This document shows, piece after piece, positions 44,085-60,267 of a stretch of DNA of 64,000 bases. The stretch covers positions 3,520,001-3,584,000 of the forward strand of contig CAVWVQ010000003.1 of assembly GCA_963758525.1 (NCBI GenBank), read 5' to 3'. The first letter of the stretch is position 1. Each line of letters starts with the position of its first letter. Made by a program: the position numbers and the translations under genes. Under the pieces are notes generated by a model that searched no databases, was not told where the DNA came from, and saw only the letters and a list, made by a program, of their open reading frames with translations. Source of the DNA: an uncultured Phycisphaerales bacterium (lineage in GTDB: Bacteria > Planctomycetota > Phycisphaerae > Tepidisphaerales > Tepidisphaeraceae).

Positions 44085-44093
44085 ATTGCGGAG

Positions 44094-44581
44094 CGGCACC
44101 GGATCGCACTGGTAGTTCATTCCGTCGAAAATTCGGGGGGACAACGTAGGGCGGGATTCATCCCGCCACGCCTTCCGTAAGACGACAGACCACGGCGGGA
44201 TAAATCCCGCCCTGCGGCATCGGATCGCACTGGTGGTTCATTCCGTCGAAAATTCGGGGGGACAACGTAGGGCGGGATTCATCCCGCCACGCCTTCTGTA
44301 AGACGACAGACTACGGCGGGATAAATCCCGCCCTGCGGCATCGGATCGCACTGGTGGTTCATTCCGTCGAAAATTCGGGGGGGACAACGTAGGGCGGGAT
44401 TCATCCCGCCACGCCTTCTGTAAGACGACAGACCACGGCGGGATAAATCCCGCCCTACGGCATCGGATCGCACTGGTGGTTCACTCCCGTCGAAAATTCG
44501 AGGGGGCAACGTAGGGCGGGATTCATCCCGCCACGCCTTCTGTAAGACGACAGACTACGGCGGGATAAATCCCGCCCTACA
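44094..44581. repeat. Four tandem 121-122 bp units, each a linker plus GTAG REP doublet (BIME-like)
   Basis: Units start near 44094, 44215, 44336 and 44458 and are near-identical. Confidence 0.92.
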
Positions 44582-44669
44582 CGAGACAGACCCGCAAGTT
44601 CCGATGGAATGTACCACAGTGAGTGGGCGAATTTCCGGCGTGTTTCTTCTTGCCTCCTCCCCTCGTACG

Positions 44670-46444
44670 GGGCCTGTCGATTTATGTGGAACACCCATTG
44701 CATCTTTGCCGGCGTGGCGCTGAAATGCTTGCCCAAGCACGGAGGCTTCGCAATGGGTCACTGGGCAACTCCCCGTCTGGATCGCAAACAGGTCACGCTT
44801 TTCGCGCCTACTCTCGATGCGTCGATTGCCGACGATCATCCCGTACGCCTCTTCCACGAGACGCTGGGGAGGATCGACTTCTCCCCCTGGGAAGCATCGT
44901 ACGTGCGGGTGGTCGGCCAGCCTCCGATCCATCCGCGGGTGCTGGCGGGATGCATTCTCTATGGATTGTCGCTGGGAATCCGTTCCAGCCGCAAGCTGGA
45001 GGACGCGGCCGCCAACCGGCTGGATTTCATCTGGCTGCTGGAGGGACGCGTCCCCGATCACGCAACGATCTGCAAATTCCGCACGCAGTTTGGCAAGCAG
45101 ATCAAGGACCTGTTCCGACAGGTCGGCCGGGTGGCGATGTCGCTGGGGCTGGTGTCGCTCAATTCGGTGATGCTCGACGGGACGGAGCTGAAGGCGAACA
45201 ACAGCCGCTACGCGACCAACCGCCGGGCGTCGCTGCAGCAGAAGCTCGATGCGTTGGACGTTCAGGTCGATCGCTTGATGGCCGAGGCGGACGCCGCGGA
45301 CAAGGCCGACGCTCAGTTGTTTGGGGAGAGTTCTCCGACGAAGCTGCCCCGGGAGCTGAGCGATCTCAAGGCCCGTCAGGCGCGTCTGCAAAAGGCGATG
45401 GACAGCGTCAATGAGATGGAAAAGCAGCGTGGGAACCGCAAGGACATGCCGCAGGGGCCGGCGATTCCGACCACCGACCCCGAGTCGCGCGTGCTGCCGG
45501 CCAAGCAGGGGGGCTACGCGCCCGCTTACACCGCGGTGCTGGCCACCGACGCGGATCATGGCTTCATCGTGGACACGCAGATGCTGGCCGGCAACGACGA
45601 GGCCTCCACGGTGCTGGCGGCGGTGCAAAACATCGAGGAGCACTTTGGCCGCAAGCCCCGGGAAATGATCGCGGATTCGGGGTTCAACACCGGGCCGAAC
45701 CTCGCGGGGCTCCAGGAGCAGAAGGTCGAGGCGCTGATGCCGCCGCGGCAGGAACTGGACGCGTCGGCGGCGCAGCGACCGGATCCCTCGCAGCCGGTGG
45801 CCGAGGCGGATCGCCCGCGTCTGCCGGTCAACCCGCAGAACAAGGTGCTGGACCGTTCGGGATTCACCTACGATGCGGCGGCCGATCAGTATCACTGCCC
45901 CATGGGACAAGCGATGCCGCGGGTCGATGACAAGCCGTACAACCGGCACGGGAACAAGGGAACCTATCAAATCTACCAGAGCCCCGACTGCGCCGGTTGC
46001 CCCCTGAAGAGCCGCTGCCTCAGCGGCAAGTCGCCGACGCGACGGGTCTGCCGCGACGAATACCAGACGCTGCGCGAGGCGATGGCAGGCCGGATGCAAA
46101 GCGAGGCCGGCCGGCAACGATATAAACAGCGCGCGGCGGTGGCGGAGCGGGCGTTTGCGGTGTTGAAAGCCAGAATGAACCTGCGGCAATTGCTGCTGCG
46201 CGGGATGGAAAAAGTGCAGATCGAGGTTGATTGGGCGGCCGCGGCGTTCAACCTGATGAAATTGATGGCCCTGACGGCAAAATAACCGGGCAGAAGCAAA
46301 GGAAAAGATCGGCTTGGACGAAAGCTGGTTCATAAAGATGGACTGATGCAGCGGAGGAAAAACGGGCAACGCGAATTCCGGCAGCCTACTGCCGAGATGA
46401 GCCGGCCTCGGAACCTGGCGGGCCGAGGTTAAAACGACAGGCCC
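44670..46444 (+). mobile_element. Complete IS1182-family insertion sequence
   Basis: IRs GGGCCTGTCGATTTA / TAAAACGACAGGCCC; flanks TACG and TACT within a split palindrome. Confidence 0.93.
44753..46285 (+). CDS. IS1182-family DDE transposase
   Basis: DHPVR, GIRSSRKLE, PDHATICKFR, DGTELKAN, TTDPESR, ADSGF, YHCPMG, CAGCPLKSRC and AERAFAVLK. Confidence 0.95.
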   Translation: MGHWATPRLDRKQVTLFAPTLDASIADDHPVRLFHETLGRIDFSPWEASYVRVVGQPPIHPRVLAGCILYGLSLGIRSSRKLEDAAANRLDFIWLLEGRVPDHATICKFRTQFGKQIKDLFRQVGRVAMSLGLVSLNSVMLDGTELKANNSRYATNRRASLQQKLDALDVQVDRLMAEADAADKADAQLFGESSPTKLPRELSDLKARQARLQKAMDSVNEMEKQRGNRKDMPQGPAIPTTDPESRVLPAKQGGYAPAYTAVLATDADHGFIVDTQMLAGNDEASTVLAAVQNIEEHFGRKPREMIADSGFNTGPNLAGLQEQKVEALMPPRQELDASAAQRPDPSQPVAEADRPRLPVNPQNKVLDRSGFTYDAAADQYHCPMGQAMPRVDDKPYNRHGNKGTYQIYQSPDCAGCPLKSRCLSGKSPTRRVCRDEYQTLREAMAGRMQSEAGRQRYKQRAAVAERAFAVLKARMNLRQLLLRGMEKVQIEVDWAAAAFNLMKLMALTAK

Positions 46445-48372: not shown

Positions 48373-49120
48373 ATGAACTACACCATTCACGGCACCACCA
48401 TGCAGACCCTGTCCGTCGAGCTATCGGCGGGCGAAACGCTCTACAGCCAGACGCACGCCATGGCCTGGATGAGCGACAACATTCAGATGCAAACCCACAC
48501 CGGCGGCGGAATCCTCGCCGGGCTGTCGCGCAGCTTCGGCGGCGGATCGTTCTTCATCACCGACTATACCTCGGCCGCAAATGCGCAGCATCGCCTTCGC
48601 GCCGCGCTTCCCCGGCAGCATCCTCCCATTCAAGCTTGCGGCCGGCGAATCGATCCTCTGCCGAAAGCAGACGTTCCTGTGCGCCGAGAAATCCGTCACG
48701 TTTGAAATCGCCTTCCAGAAACGCCTTGGCGCCGGTTTCTTCGGCGGCGAAGGCTTCATCATCCAGCGACTCACCGGGCCCGGCACCGTCTGGCTCGATC
48801 TCTCCGGCGAAGTCATCACCTACGACCTCGCCCCCGGCCAGAAAATTCTCGTCCACGCCGGCCACGTCGGCGCCCAGGCGCCGTCGGTCAACTTTGACGT
48901 GCAGATGCTCAAAGGCTTCCGCAACATTCTCTTCGGCGGCGAAGGCCTCTTTCTCGCCAGCCTGACCGGCCCCGGCAAAGTCTGGCTCCAAAGCATGCCG
49001 ATCATGAATCTCGCCGAAGCCATTGCCCAATATTTGCCGCGCGGCGACAGCGAGTCCGCCTCGCAAAGCGTGGCGGGAGGAATTGTGGGAGGGGTGTTGA
49101 GGGGGTTGCTGAAGAGCTGA
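48373..49120 (+). CDS. AIM24/TIGR00266 family protein (frameshift near 48585)
   Basis: [37 protein letters not shown] and [22 protein letters not shown]. Confidence 0.9.
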
Positions 49121-49521
49121 CGCAGCGCAGCGCTATTCCGCAAACATCGGCAAAAATACGAGCGAAAGAAGCGAGATCAAGAGCACTCACTCGAAAGTGG
49201 CGAATGGCTCCGAGTAGGGCGGGATGAATTCCGCCCTGCCACCGCAAAGATCCGCAATCACCACAAAAGTTACACCCGTCCGCGGAAGAGCTGCCGGTTG
49301 ATACATCGTTCGTGCGAATGCTTTTCTACGGACCTTTGTACAGCGCACAAAGGTCCGCAGGAGGGCGACGCGCATTCTCGGGCTTCGTGCTTATTTGCGC
49401 GCCCTCCTACGGACCCTACGCAACTGGGGTGTTGCGCTCGAAAGTGACGATGGCTCCGAGTAGGGCGGGATTCATCCCGCCGATTTGTTGGCCGGCCGAG
49501 GAAACGGCGGGATGAATTCCG
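49109..49521. repeat. About 410-bp REP mosaic, direct repeat of 52181-52634
   Basis: ctgacgcagcgcagcgctattccgcaaacatcgg... shared; first REP doublet collapsed in this copy. Confidence 0.9.
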
Positions 49522-49685
49522 ATCTGCTGAAGATCCCACGTGCAGAATCCTCGAAAGCTCGTCAGCGTCCGCGTAGCCGCCCTTGTCGAGCCAGTCTTCC
49601 ATGAGATTCGGTTTTCGGGGCCGAAGAAGATTCCCATTTGTCGACTCATATCACCCAGAACGTCGCGCGGTTAACATCAACGTAG

Positions 49686-50138
49686 ATGGCGAAGCTTGGC
49701 GCGAGCGATTACCGAATCGGCGCGAGGGAACGACTGGAAGAAGCGTATTTTCTGCTGCGCCAAGAAAGGTTCGGCGGCAGCATCTACCTCGCCGGCAGAG
49801 CTGTCGAGGGAATGCTCCGCGCGGTCATCTGGAAAAGCGATCCGGAGTATGTCACTGGTAAGAAGAACTTAGAAACAGGGCACGGTTTACGGAACCTGCT
49901 CGACTTGGTGGGCGAGATCGGCGTTTTGCGGAACAACCCTCTGAGGGACGACATCGGGGCACATGTGCAGCACGTCGGACCACTCTGGTGGAACGACATG
50001 CGGTTTCTTCCCCAAAACCGGATCAAGACCCGCTGGTTCCAACTCAACGAAATCGGCGGAAAACGGACATTCAAACTCGCCGCGAATGAGTATTATGACT
50101 CGTGCTCGGCGATCGTGAAGAGATGCGAGGCAATATGA
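49686..50138 (+). CDS. HEPN domain protein
   Basis: ARERLEEAYFLL..GSIYLAGRAVEGMLRA..GHGLRNLL..WWNDMRF pattern. Confidence 0.8.
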   Translation: MAKLGASDYRIGARERLEEAYFLLRQERFGGSIYLAGRAVEGMLRAVIWKSDPEYVTGKKNLETGHGLRNLLDLVGEIGVLRNNPLRDDIGAHVQHVGPLWWNDMRFLPQNRIKTRWFQLNEIGGKRTFKLAANEYYDSCSAIVKRCEAI

Positions 50139-50428
50139 CAAAACTGACGAAGAAGAAGCTCGAAGCAATTCTGACTCGTCGGCTCTGCTTGGTGGACCCG
50201 GAATTCCGACTGGAGAAAGCCTCCGAGCGGCTGATCGGCAACGTCATTTCCCTGACGTTCAAGGGCAAACGCGATCACGAACGGCAAAAAATGATCTGGG
50301 ACGCGCTGGAGGCCGAGTTCGGCGAGGAGTCGGTTCTGCTCGTCGGAATGTTGTTGGCCTATACCCCGGACGAGTGGAATCTGGACGCGGATCAGAAGTC
50401 GGCACCCAAAGCGAAAAAGGCCGGATGA
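50135..50428 (+). CDS. Small BolA-like or degenerate-MNT partner of HEPN
   Basis: VISLTFKGKRDHERQKMIWDAL...LLAYTPDEW; ATGA overlap with HEPN gene. Confidence 0.7.
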   Translation: MTKLTKKKLEAILTRRLCLVDPEFRLEKASERLIGNVISLTFKGKRDHERQKMIWDALEAEFGEESVLLVGMLLAYTPDEWNLDADQKSAPKAKKAG

Positions 50429-50488: not shown

Positions 50489-51708
50489 CTAGTACTCCAG
50501 CGCGCTTTGTTTGATGACTCGCGCTCTCGCTTTTTAGACGGTATGCTTTAGGCATGGTCCAAGCAAGGAGGCAACCATGTTGAAGGCTAACGTTGTGTCT
50601 TTGACCGGCGAGCAGCGAGAGGAATTGAAGCGGATCAGTCGTTCTGGAAAAAGTTCCGCACGAAGGGTGGTTCGAGCGCGGATCCTGCTCAAGAGCGACA
50701 TCGGAGAGACCGATCAGGAGATCTCCGAGGCGCTGGATGTCGGCGTGGCAACGATCGAACGCGTCCGCAGAAAGTTTGCCGCTGGCGGAATAGAGGCTGC
50801 CATCGAATCGGGTCCGCAGCCGCCGCGTCCGCAGAAGCGGCGGTTGGATGGCGAGGGCGAAGCCAAACTGGTGATGCTCGCCTGCAGCAGGCCATCCGAC
50901 GAACATGGGCATTGGACGCTGGATTTGCTGGCCGGCCAGATGGTGAAGCTGAACTACGTGCCGGCGATTTCCGGGGACACTGTCGGTCGGGTTCTAAAAA
51001 AAACGAAATCAAGCCCTGGCTGAAGGAAGAATGGTGCATTCCGCCCGATGCCAGCGGCGAGTTTGTCTATCGCATGGAGGATGTTCTGGAGGTTTACAAG
51101 CGGCCTTATGACCCGCTGCGGCCGGTGGTGGCATTGGACGAAAAGCCTCTGCAAATCCTCTCGGACACGCGCAAGCCGATCCCTTGTGAACCCGGCAGTT
51201 CGGCCAAGCAGGACCACGAGTACAAGCGTAACGGAACCGCGAACATCTTCTGTGCCGTCGAACCACTGGGAAACTTTCGCCGCCTGGAATTGACCGAGCG
51301 CCGGACCAAGCTGGACTTCGCCCATTTCGTCAAGGACCTGGTCGATACGCGGTACAAAGACGCACAGAAGATCGTGCTGGTGATGGACAATCTCAACACG
51401 CACAGTCCGGCCAGTTTCTACGACGCTTTTTCGCCCCAGGAAGCACGGCGTCTGACGGAAAAGCTGGAGATCCACCATACGCCCAAGCACGGCTCATGGC
51501 TGAATGTGGCAGAGATTGAACTGAGCGTCGTCGGACGCCGACTGCGTGATCGATGTGACAACATAGAAGATCTGGCCCGGCAATTGGCAGCAATCGAACG
51601 AGATCGCAACCAAGCCGCCAAAGGCGTCGATTGGCAATTCACTGTCGACAAGGCACGGATAAAGTTGAAACGGCTCTACCCATCATTCGAAATGCGGTAG
51701 ACTACTAG
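50489..51708 (+). mobile_element. IS630-family element
   Basis: Ends CTAGTACTCCAGCGC / GCGGTAGACTACTAG; HTH orfA plus DDE orfB. Confidence 0.92.
50577..51700 (+). CDS. IS630 transposase (orfA/orfB, probable -1 programmed frameshift at the A8 run near 50996)
   Basis: RARILLKSD, WTLDLLA; KPWLKEEWCIP, MEDVLEVY, DEKP, MDNLNTH and TPKHGSWLNVAEIE. Confidence 0.92.
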
Positions 51709-51974
51709 GCTCTGTCTGAAAACCCTAAGTCCTCACGACGGCTCAGAATGGCTTTGGCCGCTAGGCGCCCTGGCGACATCAGGGTCCGTAGACCCTTTGA
51801 GCCGGGGCAACGACGCGGACGAAGCCATTCTGAGCCGCCTGCGGTGGGCCGGATTCGATCCGCCTGCTTCATTGCCGCCCCTTGATGGCTCTACGGAGCC
51901 GGACTGCGGGGCGACGCCTCGCAGTCGAATCGAATCCGGCCCATCGTGAGGGCTTAGGGTTTTCAGACAGAGCC
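51708..51974. mobile_element. MITE with about 33-bp terminal inverted repeats, flanked by CTAG
   Basis: GGCTCTGTCTGAAAACCCTAAGTCCTCACGA ... TCGTGAGGGCTTAGGGTTTTCAGACAGAGCC; no credible ORF. Confidence 0.85.
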
Positions 51975-52009
51975 TAGGAGACTGCGAGACCGATTCGGCG
52001 GACAACGGG

Positions 52010-53089
52010 GTATGGCGGGATTCATCCCGCCGACTGACTTTTCACCGAAACACGTGGCGGGATGAATCCCGCCCTACAAACTGCGGACCTTTGTTCGCCG
52101 CGCAGACGGTCCGCAGAAGGGCGACGGTGCTCGTGCGCGGATTCGTGTTCATTGGGCGCCCTCCTGCGGACCCTACGGCACTGAAAAACTGACGCAGCGC
52201 AGCGCTATTCCGCAAACATCGGCCAAATACGAGCGAAAGAAGCGAGATCAAGAGCACTCACTCGAAAGTGGCGAATGGCTCCGAGTAGGGCGGGATTCAT
52301 CCCGCCGATTTGTTGGCCGGCCGAGAAAACGGCGGGATGAATCCCGCCCTACCACCGCAAAGATCCGCAATCACCACAAAAGTTACACCCGTCCGCGGAA
52401 GAGCTGCCGGTTGATACATCGTTCGTGCGAATGCTTTTCTACGGACCTTTGTACACCGCACAAAGGTCCGCAGGAGGGCGACGCGCATTCTCGGGCTTCG
52501 TGCCTATTTGCGCGCCCTCCTACGGACCCTACGCAACTGGGGTGTTGCGCTCGAAAGTGGCGATGGCGCCGAGTAGGGCGGGATTCATCCCGCCGATTTG
52601 TTGGCCGGCCGAGGAAACGGCGGGATGAGTTCCGCCCCTCCCATCGCAAAGATCCGCAATCGCCACAATTAAAAGTTATCCCCGTCCGCGGAAGAGTTTC
52701 CGGTAATACATCGTTCGTGCGAATGCTTTTCTACGGACCTTTGTACACCGCACAAAGGTCCGCAGGAGGGCGACGCGCATTCTCGGGCTTCGTGCTTATT
52801 TGCGCGCCCTCCTACGGACCCTACGCAACTGGGGTGTTGCGCTCGAAAGTGACGATGGCTGCGAGTAGGGCGGGATTCATCCCGCCGATTTGTTGGCCGG
52901 CCGAGAAAACGGCGGGATGAATCCCGCCCTACCACCGCAAAGATCCGCAATCACCACAAAAGTTACACCCGTCCGCGGAAGAGCTGCCGCTTGATACATC
53001 GTTCGTGCGAATGCTTTTTACGGACCTTTGTAAACCGCACAAAGGTCCGCAGGAGGGCGACGCGCATTCTCGGGCTTCGTGCTTATTTT
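52010..53089. repeat. Tandem array of about 290-bp units, each with two REP families
   Basis: GTAG REP starts at 52285, 52573 and 52865; second family CGGACCTTTG..CAAAGGTCCG..CTACGGACCCTAC; diverged unit at 52010-52177. Confidence 0.92.
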
Positions 53090-53273
53090 TAGCCCTGCCT
53101 GTTTTAAGATGCTCTTTAAAGTTTCGGGCGGCACCTCCTTCGAAAGTTTGCCGCCGCCGGAATCGATCACCGTCCCTGCTTCTCGGGTGCCGACACTGCA
53201 TATGACTCCCCACAGTTCGCGTGAGACGCCATCCGTTCGCCTCGATCACTTTGATGATGTCCCGGTATTTCAT
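53084..53273 (-). pseudogene. hicA: HicA-family toxin, frameshifted, no hicB
   Basis: MKYRDIIKVIEANGWRLTRTVGSHMQCRHP | GTV...KEVPPETLKSILKQAGLK. Confidence 0.8.
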
Positions 53274-53295: not shown

Positions 53296-56200
53296 CTAGC
53301 TGCACCCCATCGAATTCCCGCAATTCAAGCACTTGTAGCAAGTCCCGCTGCGGACGGTGATGCTGCCGCAGACATCGCAGGCCGGCGCGTCGGCTTGCAA
53401 CTCGCTCCCCTGCTGGCTCAGGGGATCGGAGACGATCGCCAGGCGGAGATTGGCGCCGCTGGGCGTGGGGGCGCCGACTTCGGGAGCCTGCAGGTGGCTG
53501 CTGTGAGCCTCCTTGAGCTGTTCATCAGTGGCAGAGCCGTAGTTGAAGGGCTTCGCGGTATCGATTTCAATGCGCGGGCCGTGACCGTTGCCGGATTTCT
53601 TCTCGCTCGTGGGGGCGGGACGCATGTCGCTCGTCTCCGCTTCGGCCGTCGCGGGCAGTGCGATCGGCGTCGCTGATTCCAACGTCGGCGAGGGTGCGGG
53701 CGGGATCGCGGGTTTCGTGCGCCGCGGAGCGTGCTGGGCGCGGTAGCCGGGCACGAATTCCATCGCGAGCCAGCGGAAGATGTAATCGACCAGCGACTTG
53801 GCGATCGGGATCTCAGGGTTGCGCGTCATGCCGCTTGGCTCAAAACGGACATGCTCGAACTTGCGGACCAGCGATTCGACAGGCACGCCATATTGCAGGC
53901 TGACGCTGACAAGCGTGGCGATGGTGTCCATCAGCCCGCCGATGGTGGAGCCTTCTTTGGCGATGCGGATGAAGACTTCGCCCGGTTGGCCGTCGTCGTA
54001 CAGACCGACGGTGATGTACCCTTCGTGACCGGCAACGTCGAACTTGTGCGTCTTGGCGGTGCGCGTGTCGGGCAGCCGTCGGCGCAGCGGACGCTCCACG
54101 ATGCGCTCTACGATTTTCTCGATCGTGTGATGATGCACCGGCGCGATATTGTCAGATGAGATTGCGGGGACCAGCGCGAGCGATGCGGCAGCCACGACGT
54201 CGGCGGCAACCTCCTCGCGCGCGGCCAGCACGGATTCCTCGTCATCCTCTTCCAGCTCGTCGATTTCCTCGTCGCTCTTCACGTTCAGCGGCTGGCTCAA
54301 CTTGGAACCGTCGCGATACAGCGCGTTGGCCTTGAGACCGAGCTTCCAGCTCAGCTCGTAGCTCTTCTGAATGTCTTCGATCGTCGCCTCATTGGGCAGA
54401 TTGATCGTCTTGGAGATCGCGCCGCTGATGAATGGCTGGGCCGCGGCCATCATGCGGATGTGACCCTCGACGGCGATGTATCGCTTCCCGTGCCTGCCGC
54501 ACTTGTTGGCGCAGTCAAACACCGGCAGGTGGACGTTTTGCAGGCCCGGCGCGCCTTCGATGGTTCCGTGACCGCAAATCACATCGTTGGCTTCGTCGAT
54601 CTGCTTCTTGTTGAAACCGAGCCGGCGGAGCAGATTGAAGTTGGGCGACTGCCATTCGCCTTCGGAAATACCCAGCCGGTTCATCAGATCGGGGCCCATC
54701 GCCCATGGATTGAAGGCAAACGAGATCTCAAACGTGCCGGGGAGCGCGGCCTCCACTTTTTCCAGCTCGGCATCGGTGAAGCCGAGGCGCTGAAGCCGTT
54801 CGTAACTGATGTGCGGCGCGTCGTGGAGCGTGAGGGTGCCCATGACGTACTTGATGATGTCGTGAATCTGCGTCGGCTCGTAGCCGAGATTTTCCAGCGC
54901 GGGCCGGAGCGATTGATTGGCGATCTTGAAGTAACCGCCGCCGGCCAGTTTCTTGAACTTGACCAGCGCGAAATCGGGCTCGACGCCGGTCGTGTCGCAG
55001 TCCATGAGCAGCCCGATGGTGCCGGTGGGGGCGATGACGGTGGTCTGCGCGTTGCGGTAGCCGTGACGTTCTCCCAGCGCCAGCGCGCGGTCCCAGCATT
55101 CGCGGGCCGAGGACAGCAGCGGACGGGGCGCCATCGGATCGGCATCTGAGAATTGCGTCTCGTCGATACCGACCGGCTCGATATCCAGGTGCTCGTAGGG
55201 ACCGGTCGCTTTGCGATGGGTCGGGGCCTTGCTTACGTTGTAAGCCGCCCGGCGATGATTGCGGATCACGCGGAGCATCTCCGCCTGGTTTTGCTCATAG
55301 CCGGGAAATGCGCCTAGCTCGCGAGCCATCTCCGCGCTGGTGGCGTAGCTCTCGCCGGTCAGAATTGCGGTGAGGGCGCCGCAGATTGCCCGTCCCTTCT
55401 CCGAATCGTACGGAATGCCCGCCTGCATCAGCATTGCCCCCAGGTTGGCATACCCCAGGCCGAGGGTCCGGTAGTGGTAGCTGAGCCTGGCGATTGCTTC
55501 GGAGGGGAAGCTGGCCATGAGCACCGAAATTTCCAGCACGATCGTCCAGAGGCGAATCCCGTGCTTGTACCCCTCCACGTCGAAGCGGCGCGACTCGGCG
55601 TCGAAAAACGTGAGGACGTTGAGCGATGCGAGATTGCACGCCGTGTCGTCGAGGAACATGTATTCCGAGCAGTTATGAACGGTCAATCCGTTCGCGACAA
55701 AGCTGCCGGTGACCGGTTCGGTCAGATCGAAAACCTGCTGCTTGCCGAGCGGCGTGAGCGTGGCGACGTGATCGTAGTTGGGCAGATCGCCGAACCTCGA
55801 CACCGATCCGCCGGCGGCTTCAGTCAGTTGAGAGAGCAGCGGGCCGGGAAGCAGAGAGATCGATTCACAAAAAGAGCGGAGGCTGCCCGGCTCAATACGC
55901 AGGCCGTGGCGTCTGGATTCTGCGTGCCCGGATTGATCGTCCGAAAGGCGACCGGACAGCGCTCCGCTGGCGAAGGCTCCGCCTTCGCATGTGTTGAGTT
56001 GCACCGACGACTGAATTCCAAAACCCGCAAGGAGGAGTTGCACGTCTTCCAGGAACCCGACGCTGTTGTGCTCGAGCGCGAGGATTCCGTCGCGAAGGCT
56101 CCCGTCGGCGGTGAAGAGCCCGCGAAGCAAATGCTTTTGCGCGGGCAGACCCGCGGTAAAGGCCTCATCGCCCAGACGCGTCTCACCCGTATCGGCGCGG

Positions 56201-57993
56201 AGGAACGCCTTGAGCCGGCTGATGAGCCGACGGTTGGTCAGCGTCGCGGTGAGCGTGTCGGCGCTCTCGTCTCCGAGCATGACCTGATTGACATAGTCAT
56301 CGCGATATCGTCGTTCACCCCAGGTGTCGGCGACATATCGCGTGTACTGATCGATCGCGGCCGCATCTCGCAGGCAGGCATCGAGCTTGACGGTGTTTGC
56401 ATCGTGGTTCGCGTTCGACAGCAGCAGGCCAAGAACCTGGAAGAACCGGGCGTCGGTCGGCTCGCCGATTTCTTCAACGCATGCCGGCCGGCTGGGAAGC
56501 TTGATCTCGTCCGACGCGGTGAGGTCCTGCGCCGCAACCCAGCCGCGATGGCGCGTCCAGACCTTGTGATCTGCCGTGAGTTTCAAGCGGTATCCGCCGG
56601 CGGTTCGCAGCTCGAAAACCTCGCGGGTGCCGGTGGGGAAAGCGCCGTCGGTGCCGTGGATTTCCTGCGAGTCTTTGTTGGTGATGATCCGGCTGGGGAG
56701 ATGAATCATCTGATCGATGCGGCGCCAGATTCCGCCGGGGGTGAGCACGCGCGTATCTCCGGTCACGCACGGATTCGACGCGTTGATCCGGCCCGATCGC
56801 GGGCAGGTGTGCCACTGGTTGATCGTGTCGTCATATTGCACGCCCGGGTCGGCGCAACGCCAGGCGGCAAACGAGATTTGCTCCCACAGATCGCGCACCT
56901 TCACCGTCTTGGCGACCTTCCCGCTCGAGCGCCAGGTGAGCGTCCAGTCGCCATCCTCCTCAACCGCCTTGAAGAAACGATTGGGGATGCGGACGGAGTT
57001 GTTTGAGTTTTGGCCGGAGACGGTGAGATAACCTTCGCCATTGAAATCGTAGTCCAGCTTCAGCCCGAGCTTTTTGGCCAACTCCTGCTGCGGCTTGGAC
57101 AGATGCTTGATCCCTTCCGCCAGCGCGGCAACCTTGAGCTCTTCGCGCACTTTCCAGTTGACGAAATCCTCGATATCCGGATGGTCCAGATCGAGGCAGA
57201 CCATTTTGGCGGCCCGGCGCGTCGTGCCGCCCGACTTGATCGCGCCCGCGGCACGGTCGCCAATTTTCAGGAAGCTCATCAGCCCCGAGGATTTTCCGCC
57301 GCCCGAGAGCGGCTCGTCTTCACCGCGGATTTTCGAGAAGTTGGTTCCGGTGCCCGAGCCGTATTTGAAGAGACGCGCCTCGCGCGTCCAGAGATCCATG
57401 ATGCCGCCCTCGTTCACCAGGTCGTCTTTGACCGATTGGATAAAGCAGGCATGAGGTTGCGGATGTGAATACGCGTCGCGGCTCTTCTGCAGCTCGCCGT
57501 TCTTGGGATCGCAATAGAGATGCCCCTGCGCCGGGCCGGTGATGCCGTAGGCAAAGTTCAGCCCCGTGTTGAACCACTGCGGCGAGTTGGGCGCGCACAT
57601 CTGATGCAGCAGCATGTAGGCCAACTCGTCATAAAAGGCCTGCGCGTCCTCGGCGGTGTCGAAATACCCGTGCTTCTCGCCCCAGTAGCGCCAGCATCCG
57701 GCCAGGCGATGCACCACCTGCCGCGCGGATTTCTCCGGGCCGGTGACGATATTGCCGTGCGCATCGCGGATCGGCTGCCCGCTCTCGTCGGCCAGCGGAA
57801 CACCCGCCTTGCGGAAATACTTGCTCACCATGATGTCGGTGGCAAGCTGCGACCACTGGGCCGGAATCTCCGCGTCATTCATCTCGAAGACAATCGAGCC
57901 GTCGGGATTGCTGATCCGGCTCGTGCGCTTCTGATATTCAACCGATGCGAATGGGTCCTGTCCGGCCTTGGTGAATCGACGGGTGATCTTCAT
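53296..57993 (-). CDS. nrdJ: Class II (B12-dependent) ribonucleotide reductase with intein, TSCPD-like and Zn-ribbon C-terminus
   Basis: PNSPQWFN, ACFIQSV, FKYGSGTG, SNP[intein]CSEY, ACNLASLN, IAPTGTI, YRDGSK and CDVCG..CLNCG. Confidence 0.96.
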   Translation of the reverse strand: MKITRRFTKAGQDPFASVEYQKRTSRISNPDGSIVFEMNDAEIPAQWSQLATDIMVSKYFRKAGVPLADESGQPIRDAHGNIVTGPEKSARQVVHRLAGCWRYWGEKHGYFDTAEDAQAFYDELAYMLLHQMCAPNSPQWFNTGLNFAYGITGPAQGHLYCDPKNGELQKSRDAYSHPQPHACFIQSVKDDLVNEGGIMDLWTREARLFKYGSGTGTNFSKIRGEDEPLSGGGKSSGLMSFLKIGDRAAGAIKSGGTTRRAAKMVCLDLDHPDIEDFVNWKVREELKVAALAEGIKHLSKPQQELAKKLGLKLDYDFNGEGYLTVSGQNSNNSVRIPNRFFKAVEEDGDWTLTWRSSGKVAKTVKVRDLWEQISFAAWRCADPGVQYDDTINQWHTCPRSGRINASNPCVTGDTRVLTPGGIWRRIDQMIHLPSRIITNKDSQEIHGTDGAFPTGTREVFELRTAGGYRLKLTADHKVWTRHRGWVAAQDLTASDEIKLPSRPACVEEIGEPTDARFFQVLGLLLSNANHDANTVKLDACLRDAAAIDQYTRYVADTWGERRYRDDYVNQVMLGDESADTLTATLTNRRLISRLKAFLRADTGETRLGDEAFTAGLPAQKHLLRGLFTADGSLRDGILALEHNSVGFLEDVQLLLAGFGIQSSVQLNTCEGGAFASGALSGRLSDDQSGHAESRRHGLRIEPGSLRSFCESISLLPGPLLSQLTEAAGGSVSRFGDLPNYDHVATLTPLGKQQVFDLTEPVTGSFVANGLTVHNCSEYMFLDDTACNLASLNVLTFFDAESRRFDVEGYKHGIRLWTIVLEISVLMASFPSEAIARLSYHYRTLGLGYANLGAMLMQAGIPYDSEKGRAICGALTAILTGESYATSAEMARELGAFPGYEQNQAEMLRVIRNHRRAAYNVSKAPTHRKATGPYEHLDIEPVGIDETQFSDADPMAPRPLLSSARECWDRALALGERHGYRNAQTTVIAPTGTIGLLMDCDTTGVEPDFALVKFKKLAGGGYFKIANQSLRPALENLGYEPTQIHDIIKYVMGTLTLHDAPHISYERLQRLGFTDAELEKVEAALPGTFEISFAFNPWAMGPDLMNRLGISEGEWQSPNFNLLRRLGFNKKQIDEANDVICGHGTIEGAPGLQNVHLPVFDCANKCGRHGKRYIAVEGHIRMMAAAQPFISGAISKTINLPNEATIEDIQKSYELSWKLGLKANALYRDGSKLSQPLNVKSDEEIDELEEDDEESVLAAREEVAADVVAAASLALVPAISSDNIAPVHHHTIEKIVERIVERPLRRRLPDTRTAKTHKFDVAGHEGYITVGLYDDGQPGEVFIRIAKEGSTIGGLMDTIATLVSVSLQYGVPVESLVRKFEHVRFEPSGMTRNPEIPIAKSLVDYIFRWLAMEFVPGYRAQHAPRRTKPAIPPAPSPTLESATPIALPATAEAETSDMRPAPTSEKKSGNGHGPRIEIDTAKPFNYGSATDEQLKEAHSSHLQAPEVGAPTPSGANLRLAIVSDPLSQQGSELQADAPACDVCGSITVRSGTCYKCLNCGNSMGCS
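55672..56769 (-). mobile_element. Intein (366 aa) with degenerate LAGLIDADG domain
   Basis: Starts CVTGDTRVLT; block B LKLTADHKV; LRGLFTADG; ends VFDLTE..FVANGLTVHN/C. Confidence 0.95.
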
Positions 57994-59096: not shown

Positions 59097-59324
59097 GTGG
59101 ATTACTCGCACCTCATCACAATCGAGGCGGAGAAGCGGAGCGGGCAGGCATGTATCCGCGGCCTGCGCATCACCGTTCGCGATGTGCTTGAGTACCTCGC
59201 CTCCGGAATGTCCAGCGAGGAAATTCTCGGCGATTTTCCTGATCTGACCGCGGATGATATCCGTGCATGTCTGGCATTTGCGGCTGAGCGAGAACGGCGG
59301 CTGTGGGTTGTGCCCGCCGCATGA
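59097..59324 (+). CDS. DUF433 family antitoxin
   Basis: RSGQACIRGLRITVRDVLEYLASGMSSEEILGDFPDLTADDIRACLAFAA. Confidence 0.93.
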   Translation: MDYSHLITIEAEKRSGQACIRGLRITVRDVLEYLASGMSSEEILGDFPDLTADDIRACLAFAAERERRLWVVPAA

Positions 59325-59362
59325 AACTCCTCTTCGATCAGAACTTCACCCGACGGCTTCTA
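59321..59362 (+). pseudogene. N-terminal stub of DUF5615/PIN-like toxin
   Basis: ATGA overlap, then MKLLFDQNFTRRLL; runs into the convergent DUF4058 gene. Confidence 0.7.
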
Positions 59363-60104
59363 TCACATTCTTCCATCGCCGCGGCACGCCTTCGTACGCG
59401 GCGGCGTAGGTCGCGTCCAACGGGAGGTTGACATACCAGTCAGGATCGTAAAACAGCGGCATCTCGGGGACTGGTTCGCCCGGCTCGAATGATTCGCCAT
59501 AGCAGTGGACCAGATCGGCAACACGGAAGGAGGAAGTGGAAAGGGGTTTGCCCCCCGGCCATGCGATACGCTGCCCGCCGATCGCTTCCCATACGGCGCT
59601 GCTGAGTCCCGCCGGATCGCTCGGGCCGGCAGGGAAGAGGTCGACCACCACAAGGTGATACCCGGCTTGTAAGCTGCCCACCGCCTTATCGATGAATCGC
59701 TGCACGGACTGGGCCCGGTCCTTGTTGCCGGGCGAAACGATCTCCAGAAGCGCAACGATTCGGTCATTGGTGGCATGACGAATCGTCAGCGTGCGCCGCT
59801 TGAGGGCGTACAGTGCCGCCTCGTCGACCTGCCCGATCACGTGCGCCTTTGGCCGCGCCACTGCCAGCGCGGTTCCGCCGCCGTCCGACGAAAAATCCTC
59901 CGGCTCGCGGCTCTCGCTACCCTCGTCATGTTGCTCCAGCGCCAGAAGGTCCGGCTCGAACTCCGCCGCCCGCTGCTCGGCCAAGGCGTATAAATCACGC
60001 GGCAGAAGGCCGGAATTGAGGGCACGGCGGAGCTCCGCGATCCACGCCAGGTGGAAGTCATGAAACGTTCCCGCTGTCACTCTTGTCCAGTCGTGCGCCG
60101 GCAT
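59346..60104 (-). CDS. DUF4058 family protein
   Basis: MPAHDWTRVTAGTFHDFHLAWI, LEIVSPGNK, HLVVVDL and LPLDATY. Confidence 0.88.
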   Translation of the reverse strand: MPAHDWTRVTAGTFHDFHLAWIAELRRALNSGLLPRDLYALAEQRAAEFEPDLLALEQHDEGSESREPEDFSSDGGGTALAVARPKAHVIGQVDEAALYALKRRTLTIRHATNDRIVALLEIVSPGNKDRAQSVQRFIDKAVGSLQAGYHLVVVDLFPAGPSDPAGLSSAVWEAIGGQRIAWPGGKPLSTSSFRVADLVHCYGESFEPGEPVPEMPLFYDPDWYVNLPLDATYAAAYEGVPRRWKNVIEAVG

Positions 60105-60267
60105 AAAAATCATTATACGGTCCGAAAAGAAATAAGCGTATGAGACAACGCTCGTCCTCTCGTCACGTTTCACGTCTTCACGTTCGAAGATTTCCACCTC
60201 CCTGTCACGTTCCAATCACCAATCACCAATCGCAACGCCCACGACGTACAAATAAATTATTTCACCC

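Follow-up and report, generated by a model that had tools for sequence, protein, structure and literature searches.

The window analysed here is a stretch of 64,000 nucleotides from an uncultured Phycisphaerales bacterium. A sequence-only reading had singled out in it two small overlapping genes, which lie among the following features (coordinates are those of the window).

44093-44581, 49218-49528 and 52010-52932: REP-like palindromes with mosaic units of 121 nt and about 290 nt; their 22-nt core is repeated about 180 times on each strand of the genome.
44609-46285, + strand: DUF772/DDE_Tnp_1_6 transposase gene, directly after the 121-nt repeat array.
48373-49120, + strand: AIM24-family gene, split over two frames near 48600; at the related locus L003 it is an intact ORF of 248 aa.
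49109-49521 and 52181-52634: direct repeat, 88% identical, whose first 12 nt are the end of the AIM24-family gene.
49686-50138, + strand: HEPN-T gene, 150 aa, of PF05168 type and related to PDC-M28A; predicted RNA-targeting toxin.
50135-50138, + strand: ATGA stop/start overlap of the HEPN and BolA-fold genes, suggesting translational coupling.
50135-50428, + strand: BolA-fold gene, 97 aa, without the IHAL histidine and without a conserved GS-x10-DxD motif; predicted non-enzymatic antitoxin or partner.
50577-51700, + strand: IS630-family transposase gene in two overlapping frames (HTH_32, DDE_3), a single copy in the genome.
51699-51983: MITE-like element of 280 bp, imperfectly palindromic, with at least five copies elsewhere in the genome that are 98-99% identical.
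52929-53273, - strand: HicA-like remnant, frameshifted.
53296-57993, - strand: ribonucleotide reductase gene, 1565 aa; the orthologue at L003 matches Ribonuc_red_lgC and TSCPD.
59097-59324 and 59346-60215: small TA-like genes nearby, DUF433 and DUF4058, respectively.

Both reading frames are present as described, including the motif quoted for the shorter one, VISLTFKGKRDHERQKMIWDAL...YTPDEW. Compared with L003, dN/dS is 0.06 for the HEPN and 0.15 for the partner, and hence both ORFs are maintained genes under purifying selection. We found 108 homologues of the HEPN and 76 of the BolA-fold partner; those with a name, and the related loci, come from Tepidisphaeraceae/Phycisphaerae. The two genes overlap or lie at most 3 nt apart in all 83 loci scored. 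The HEPN of relatives is 3 residues longer and the commonest overlap is 13 nt (43/83 loci); the 4-nt ATGA overlap is lineage-specific. Both products are basic (pI 9.4 for the HEPN and 8.7 for the partner). A scan for promoters and terminators gave no signal over chance. No Pfam or NCBIfam model exceeds its cut-off for this HEPN/BolA-type family: taken as single sequences, the HEPN ORF reaches PF05168 with a sub-threshold E of 0.0036 (17.9 bits against a gathering value of 22) and the 97-aa ORF reaches BolA PF01722 with an equally sub-threshold E of 0.008.

The segment had also been described as mobile-looking and repeat-flanked. Repeats and an IS630 element do flank the pair, but they do not delimit a mobile unit. 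Genome-wide, the two strands have 177 and 179 copies of the 22-nt core found in the flanking repeat. Locus L003 carries the pair with 82% DNA identity at the same site, between an AIM24-family gene and ribonucleotide reductase and 38 nt past the AIM24 stop, and this site has no match to the flanking repeats or to IS630. Since L003 has the pair in the same place without them, the repeats and IS630 are not part of the module, and we rejected a mobile element bounded by these genome-wide REP-like sequences. The pair has not changed site since this genome and L003 diverged, which argues that it is not highly mobile. Window positions 49558-49637 match a stretch that in L003 lies downstream of the pair; together with the 88% direct repeat, this displaced match suggests that a local duplication or rearrangement may have taken place. 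Two further observations concern the neighbours: an A-run near 50995 in the IS630 transposase looks like a programmed frameshift site, and the ribonucleotide reductase appears, by eye, to be interrupted by an intein some 365 aa long.

The 150-aa protein is a HEPN-T domain (PF05168-type, class II). Its AF2 model (pLDDT 92.9) best matches HEPN-T structures, which bears out the fold first proposed for it: VIA Z values are 14.3 for 1ufb, 14.2 for sacsin 3o10, 13.2 for AF0298 2hsb and 13.1 for 1wol, against 8.1 for the class I protein SO_3166. The best Foldseek rows are all HEPN, none of them at E<=0.001, and a PDB sequence search with the HEPN profile returned chance matches only. A paralogous HEPN of the same genome, at C3:3345573, clears the Pfam HEPN gathering cut-off. 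Seven residues are invariant in the 82 aligned homologues (Y9, R16, R38, E41, R45, H66 and R106), K60 is conserved in 77/82 as part of a basic K/R59-K60 pair, and many homologues have RKSLxTGH leading into H66. The protein thus shows the HEPN-T hallmark, Ex3[KR] in helix 2 with an alternative histidine before helix 3, in the form of E41, R45 and H66. This is the pattern of AF0298-like HEPN-T domains, for which an alternative active site has been proposed, and alternative-histidine HEPN-T families have been proposed to be RNases (Anantharaman et al. 2013, PMC3710099). The family alignment has no conserved Rx4-6H where this motif is canonically found, at the end of helix 3. The sole Rx4-6H match in our protein, R87-H93, was rejected as an RNase motif, its histidine being found in 5/82 homologues.

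Residue 107 of our protein is a phenylalanine, as it is in 77/82 close relatives, where HEPN-T domains linked to a minimal nucleotidyltransferase (MNT), and most wider relatives, have RY. The change is not general, because many BolA-partnered HEPNs beyond the close subfamily retain this tyrosine. The premise that an MNT AMPylates its HEPN was demonstrated for class I (DUF86-type) HEPNs only; for the PF05168 class, Yao et al. (2020, PMC7641770) state that biochemical work did not yet exist, and our literature search found none of later date. The present HEPN is thus a predicted toxin. The related AbiV is a demonstrated rRNase (10.1101/2024.05.05.592566).

The partner had been likened either to the BolA fold or to the C-terminal half of an MNT, and the first of these likenesses stands. 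In a PDB search its profile matched 14 sequences, all of BolA type (best 2mm9, E 4e-7, positions 4-90, i.e. full-length). Profile-profile comparison gave P 98.5% with canonical BolA over 77 columns, against 0.8% for a set of 25 MNTs and 0.4% for five MNTs of the HEPN-T type. Foldseek placed BolA structures at ranks 1-22 and the first MNT at rank 30. VIA scored the model at Z 9.8 against BolA 3o2e (rmsd 2.3, 81 residues) and 5.9 against MNT 1ylq, modest values yet in agreement with the profile result. Housekeeping BolA proteins are Fe-S/glutaredoxin partners and stress regulators, and the histidine of their IHAL motif is an Fe-S/metal ligand. None of 82 partner homologues has this histidine, and in a short, unrooted tree canonical BolA is split from all partners by a long branch (100/99). 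The present genome (91% complete) has no BolA over the Pfam cut-off. In the ESM Atlas, the homologue P0012 falls among unnamed, mostly Planctomycetota clusters, with BolA appearing only at 0.84, a lead. Tandem His-less BolA-like domains, two per protein, occur in P0238, P0244, P0245, P0253, P0257, P0264, P0265, P0269 and P0287.

Could the partner nevertheless descend from a catalytically dead MNT that has come to resemble BolA, which would make the module a degenerate class II HEPN-MNT pair? We consider this very improbable. In structure the partner weakly resembles MNTs and further folds of the Pol-beta kind (1ylq as above, 2rff Z 5.8). G35 and D47 stand at GS-x10-D spacing, but by chance: the model places G35 in strand 2 and D47 at the start of a helix, D47 is found in 28/82 members of the wider family, and we rejected this GS-x10-DxD look-alike. 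The full G-S-x10-D-x-D occurs in 1/73 wider relatives, in keeping with the first description of the partner as devoid of the MNT catalytic motif. An exhaustive search with the partner profile gave 493 representatives. Among the 150 listed, none has a conserved MNT motif, a loose GS-x10-DxD pattern is scattered and unconserved in 12, and five are His-motif BolA repeats. No NTP_transf Pfam family was found in the 65 distant homologues scanned. Thus, the partner does not align to full MNTs with intact catalytic aspartates. Two points in favour of MNT descent come from related systems discussed below, namely a weakly MNT-like partner family beside the same HEPN family and an N-terminal domain that has been called an inactive nucleotidyltransferase. 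They are set against profile comparisons by which a dead-MNT descent already appears largely refuted; BolA and MNT may still share a deep common ancestry.

The association between the two genes is conserved across genomes. Among HEPN-selected metagenome loci the partner is directly downstream in 76/80, and the remaining 4 stop at contig edges. Selection by the partner gave 23 genome loci; once 4 canonical glutaredoxin (Grx)-BolA loci are set aside, the other 19 have a HEPN upstream (16), a HEPN remnant (1), a contig edge (1) or none (1). A broad partner profile run on 301 Planctomycetota genomes found 24 places. Fifteen are canonical His-motif BolA, none of them after a HEPN and with Grx adjoining in 12 by script and in 2 more as seen; the other 9 are His-less, 7 of them after a HEPN and none beside Grx. 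The broad HEPN profile used in this control was partly built from those loci, which an independent narrow profile also matched. At L145 (G236:C40) two HEPN and BolA-like pairs stand in tandem, the second HEPN being split over two frames, and the downstream gene looks cyclase-like (adenylate/guanylate).

The genome under study holds three divergent copies of the pair. The second (C3:3345531-3346234) lies between glutamate synthase subunit genes and the third (C3:1578403-1579184) after the beta-clamp gene, the neighbours being identified by eye in both cases; a lone 5' HEPN remnant and a lone partner remnant are also present. The same genome carries ordinary MNT-HEPN pairs, with the MNT first. 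A search of two genomes of the same genus (94% and 81% complete) did not find the close subfamily of the pair. Across loci, insertion sites are many and unrelated, often 31-119 nt past the end of a housekeeping gene with the same orientation. The named neighbours among 95 selected flanking ORFs are mostly housekeeping: groEL/dnaJ repeatedly, glyA-proS, dnaA, nadA, topo VIB and deoxyhypusine synthase. Those named by Pfam include one defence gene, a type III restriction subunit. A groEL signature was found in 12/99 loci (L014, L020, L027, L031, L032, L062, L065, L091, L093, L095, L098 and L100), and the groEL-adjoining copies often sit between groEL and dnaJ. Such neighbourhoods look more like those of a selfish TA unit than like a defence island. 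The three divergent pairs with two remnants, the patchy spread and the many unrelated insertion sites argue for TA-like behaviour.

Patterns of decay were also compared. After merging near-copies, both genes are intact in 63/89 loci. Damage to the HEPN alone exceeds damage to the partner alone (8 vs 2), a difference that is not significant when length is allowed for (p about 0.26). Frameshifts in the partner occur in L058, L073, L081 and L082. Three lesions that disrupt the HEPN are shared by 2-3 independent assemblies in which the partner is intact, and no partner lesion recurs, which lends weak support to the HEPN being the costly gene.

These observations bear on a different view of the pair, as an obligate two-subunit complex for RNA binding or processing, in which the BolA (KH-II-like) fold would be the specificity or activating subunit and which would tune host-operon transcripts without killing. 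Both proteins are basic, the HEPN has no canonical RNase motif, the pair recurs at groEL/dnaJ, and the partner model shows further likeness to ribosomal and KH-type domains that bind RNA (chains of the Toxoplasma mitoribosome at Z about 8, S3 KH at Z 5.8). Yet the insertion sites are very diverse, the pair is distributed patchily and in several copies, and recurrent loss of HEPN function with an intact partner suits a toxin better. We therefore find the RNA-complex view unlikely.

A further comparison is with HINPO, a proposed immune system whose N-terminal domain has been called an inactive nucleotidyltransferase (Li, Burroughs, Aravind, bioRxiv 10.64898/2026.10.19.760177); HINPO is itself a prediction. 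Its layout, shared with PADLOC's PDC-M28, is a HEPN, an inactive domain fused to ParA, and a STAND protein, with the same HEPN family at its head. We provisionally equate PDC-M28, on which our literature search found no paper, with HINPO on the strength of matching architecture. The sole plasmid match of our HEPN is a Nostoc HEPN that overlaps a gene of 890 aa, in which a BolA-like start is joined to ParA and ORC/CDC6. This locus stands beside a type I hsdR and matches both PDC-M28A/B/C and the HINPO layout. The HEPN family of the pair matches the Nostoc HINPO-type HEPN with profile P 95%. The PDC-M28A model reaches E 0.013 for our HEPN and 1e-4 to 9e-8 for five related HEPNs, and it matches the paralogues. 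The partner resembles the N-terminus of two ParA fusions (L143, L174) with P 58-75%, and shows no detectable match (P 3%) to the commoner HINPO N-terminal type. The N-termini of HINPO/PDC-M28 ParA proteins come in two kinds without detectable similarity to each other, a BolA type (L143, L174) and an RDxxGR type (L157-L171, L178, L179). In the tree described above the two HINPO-type domains sit unplaced on long branches, and the tree gives no direction.

How the gene after the HEPN varies was followed with PDC-M28A as probe. In Tepidisphaerales, 44/141 genomes match at 69 places; the 30 places read have a stand-alone BolA-type partner in 23, another small partner in 6 and an unclear one in 1. 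In a Pseudomonadota sample, 20/301 genomes match, and the 22 loci comprise 17 ParA fusions (BolA-type start in 1, the other type in 16), 3 other small partners and 2 unclear cases. In nearly all cases, therefore, what comes after this HEPN family is a small alpha/beta domain that is non-catalytic and belongs to one of several kinds. Two additional partner families, D and E, are found behind the same HEPN family at L144, L151, L155, L156, L173, L175, L176, L213-L216, L221 and L225. They match each other with P 93%, none of the 7 scanned has a Pfam match, and family E has a weak MNT likeness without GS (P 22%, E 0.001). The BolA fold appears to be one interchangeable occupant of a slot filled by inactive alpha/beta partners, some of them MNT-like, and since the slot persists where ParA is missing, its occupant may well act on the HEPN itself. 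Elsewhere, the broad partner alignment revealed no extended, fused forms among 7990 candidates, a weak search since two fusions emerged otherwise, and neither the partner nor the HEPN of the second paralogue had a plasmid match.

The pair might then be a minimal system against phages, corresponding to the core of HINPO/PDC-M28 without its ParA, with the partner as a sensor or latch freeing the HEPN upon infection. The plasmid match with its ParA fusion beside hsdR, the HEPN profile matches and the immune role proposed for HINPO speak for this, but a regular expression for the ParA Walker-A motif had no match in 99 pair loci, the Pfam-named flanking ORFs are mostly those of housekeeping, a HEPN alignment search found no relative in viral contigs, and HINPO is a prediction. 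We doubt this view as a full account of the pair; it is compatible with a TA reading, since many TA units also defend.

On balance, we think it probable that the pair is a type II TA-like unit, made of a predicted HEPN-T RNA toxin and a non-enzymatic BolA-fold binding antitoxin and carried on host operon transcripts. The HEPN-T protein would attack or sequester RNA, as a dimer in which E41/R45/H66/R106 and the basic K/R59-K60 might form the alternative active site. The BolA-fold protein, co-translated with it, would bind it directly and in this way neutralise it without AMPylation; the lack of a conserved GS-x10-DxD in the partner and the phenylalanine in place of the class II tyrosine argue against an AMPylation route. 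Expression would come mostly by read-through from the host operon, and loss or displacement of the partner under stress or infection would release the toxin. One might speculate further, and only tentatively, that a His-less branch of BolA proteins serves as binding antitoxin for class II HEPN RNases in a widespread TA family, and that the same latch is fused to ParA in part of HINPO/PDC-M28, whose N-terminal domain would then be a HEPN inhibitor freed by ATPases and not a nucleotide sensor. If true, such an antitoxin branch would give the BolA fold a new function, and the pair offers a concrete, testable role for the domain, so far unexplained, at the N-terminus of HINPO/PDC-M28. HEPNs of class II (PF05168) occur very commonly and include relatives of the sacsin domain; a 250-aa pair devoid of an enzyme partner is a simple test case for the alternative-histidine site as an RNase, in a family that is common in one order, Tepidisphaerales.

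Our literature search, which covered open-access papers and the main texts of bioRxiv preprints, found no paper on a HEPN-BolA pair, and in the HINPO paper (10.64898/2026.10.19.760177) the main text does not contain the word BolA and its section list has no ParA-free HEPN pair. Compared with known systems, the closest on the HEPN side is class II HEPN/MNT (PF05168/PF01909; PMC7641770, PMC3710099), which shares the HEPN-T fold, Ex3R, the alternative histidine in the helix 2-3 insert and the organisation in two small coupled genes. It differs in its MNT partner, where we find a BolA fold without conserved GS-x10-DxD, in the tyrosine replaced here in 77/82 close relatives, and in gene order: the HEPN comes first here, and MNT-HEPN pairs are reversed (PMC3710099), as are those of this very genome. 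Class I HepT/MntA (type VII TA) and AbiV are likewise HEPN-superfamily RNase toxins restrained by a neighbour. HepT, however, has RX4HXY and is AMPylated (PMC7641770), whereas the HEPN here has no conserved RX4HXY; AbiV has an RNA antitoxin (10.1101/2024.05.05.592566), and neither system has a BolA-fold partner. With BolA/IbaG (PF01722) the partner shares the fold over its full length as well as the motifs FxGxxxxxR and TPxEW; it differs in having no IHAL histidine and no glutaredoxin neighbour, and in always following a HEPN where intact. HINPO/PDC-M28 has a homologous 5' HEPN overlapping a gene that begins with a small inactive alpha/beta domain, of another type than our partner in 16 of the 17 Pseudomonadota fusions. 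The present pair has neither ParA nor ORC/CDC6, as ORF2 ends at 97 aa and is followed by IS630. Judged by sequence, the pair thus falls outside HEPN/MNT (no MNT), housekeeping BolA (no histidine or Grx) and HINPO (no ParA), and it shows the hallmarks of type II TA systems: two small coupled genes, patchy in distribution and present in several copies.
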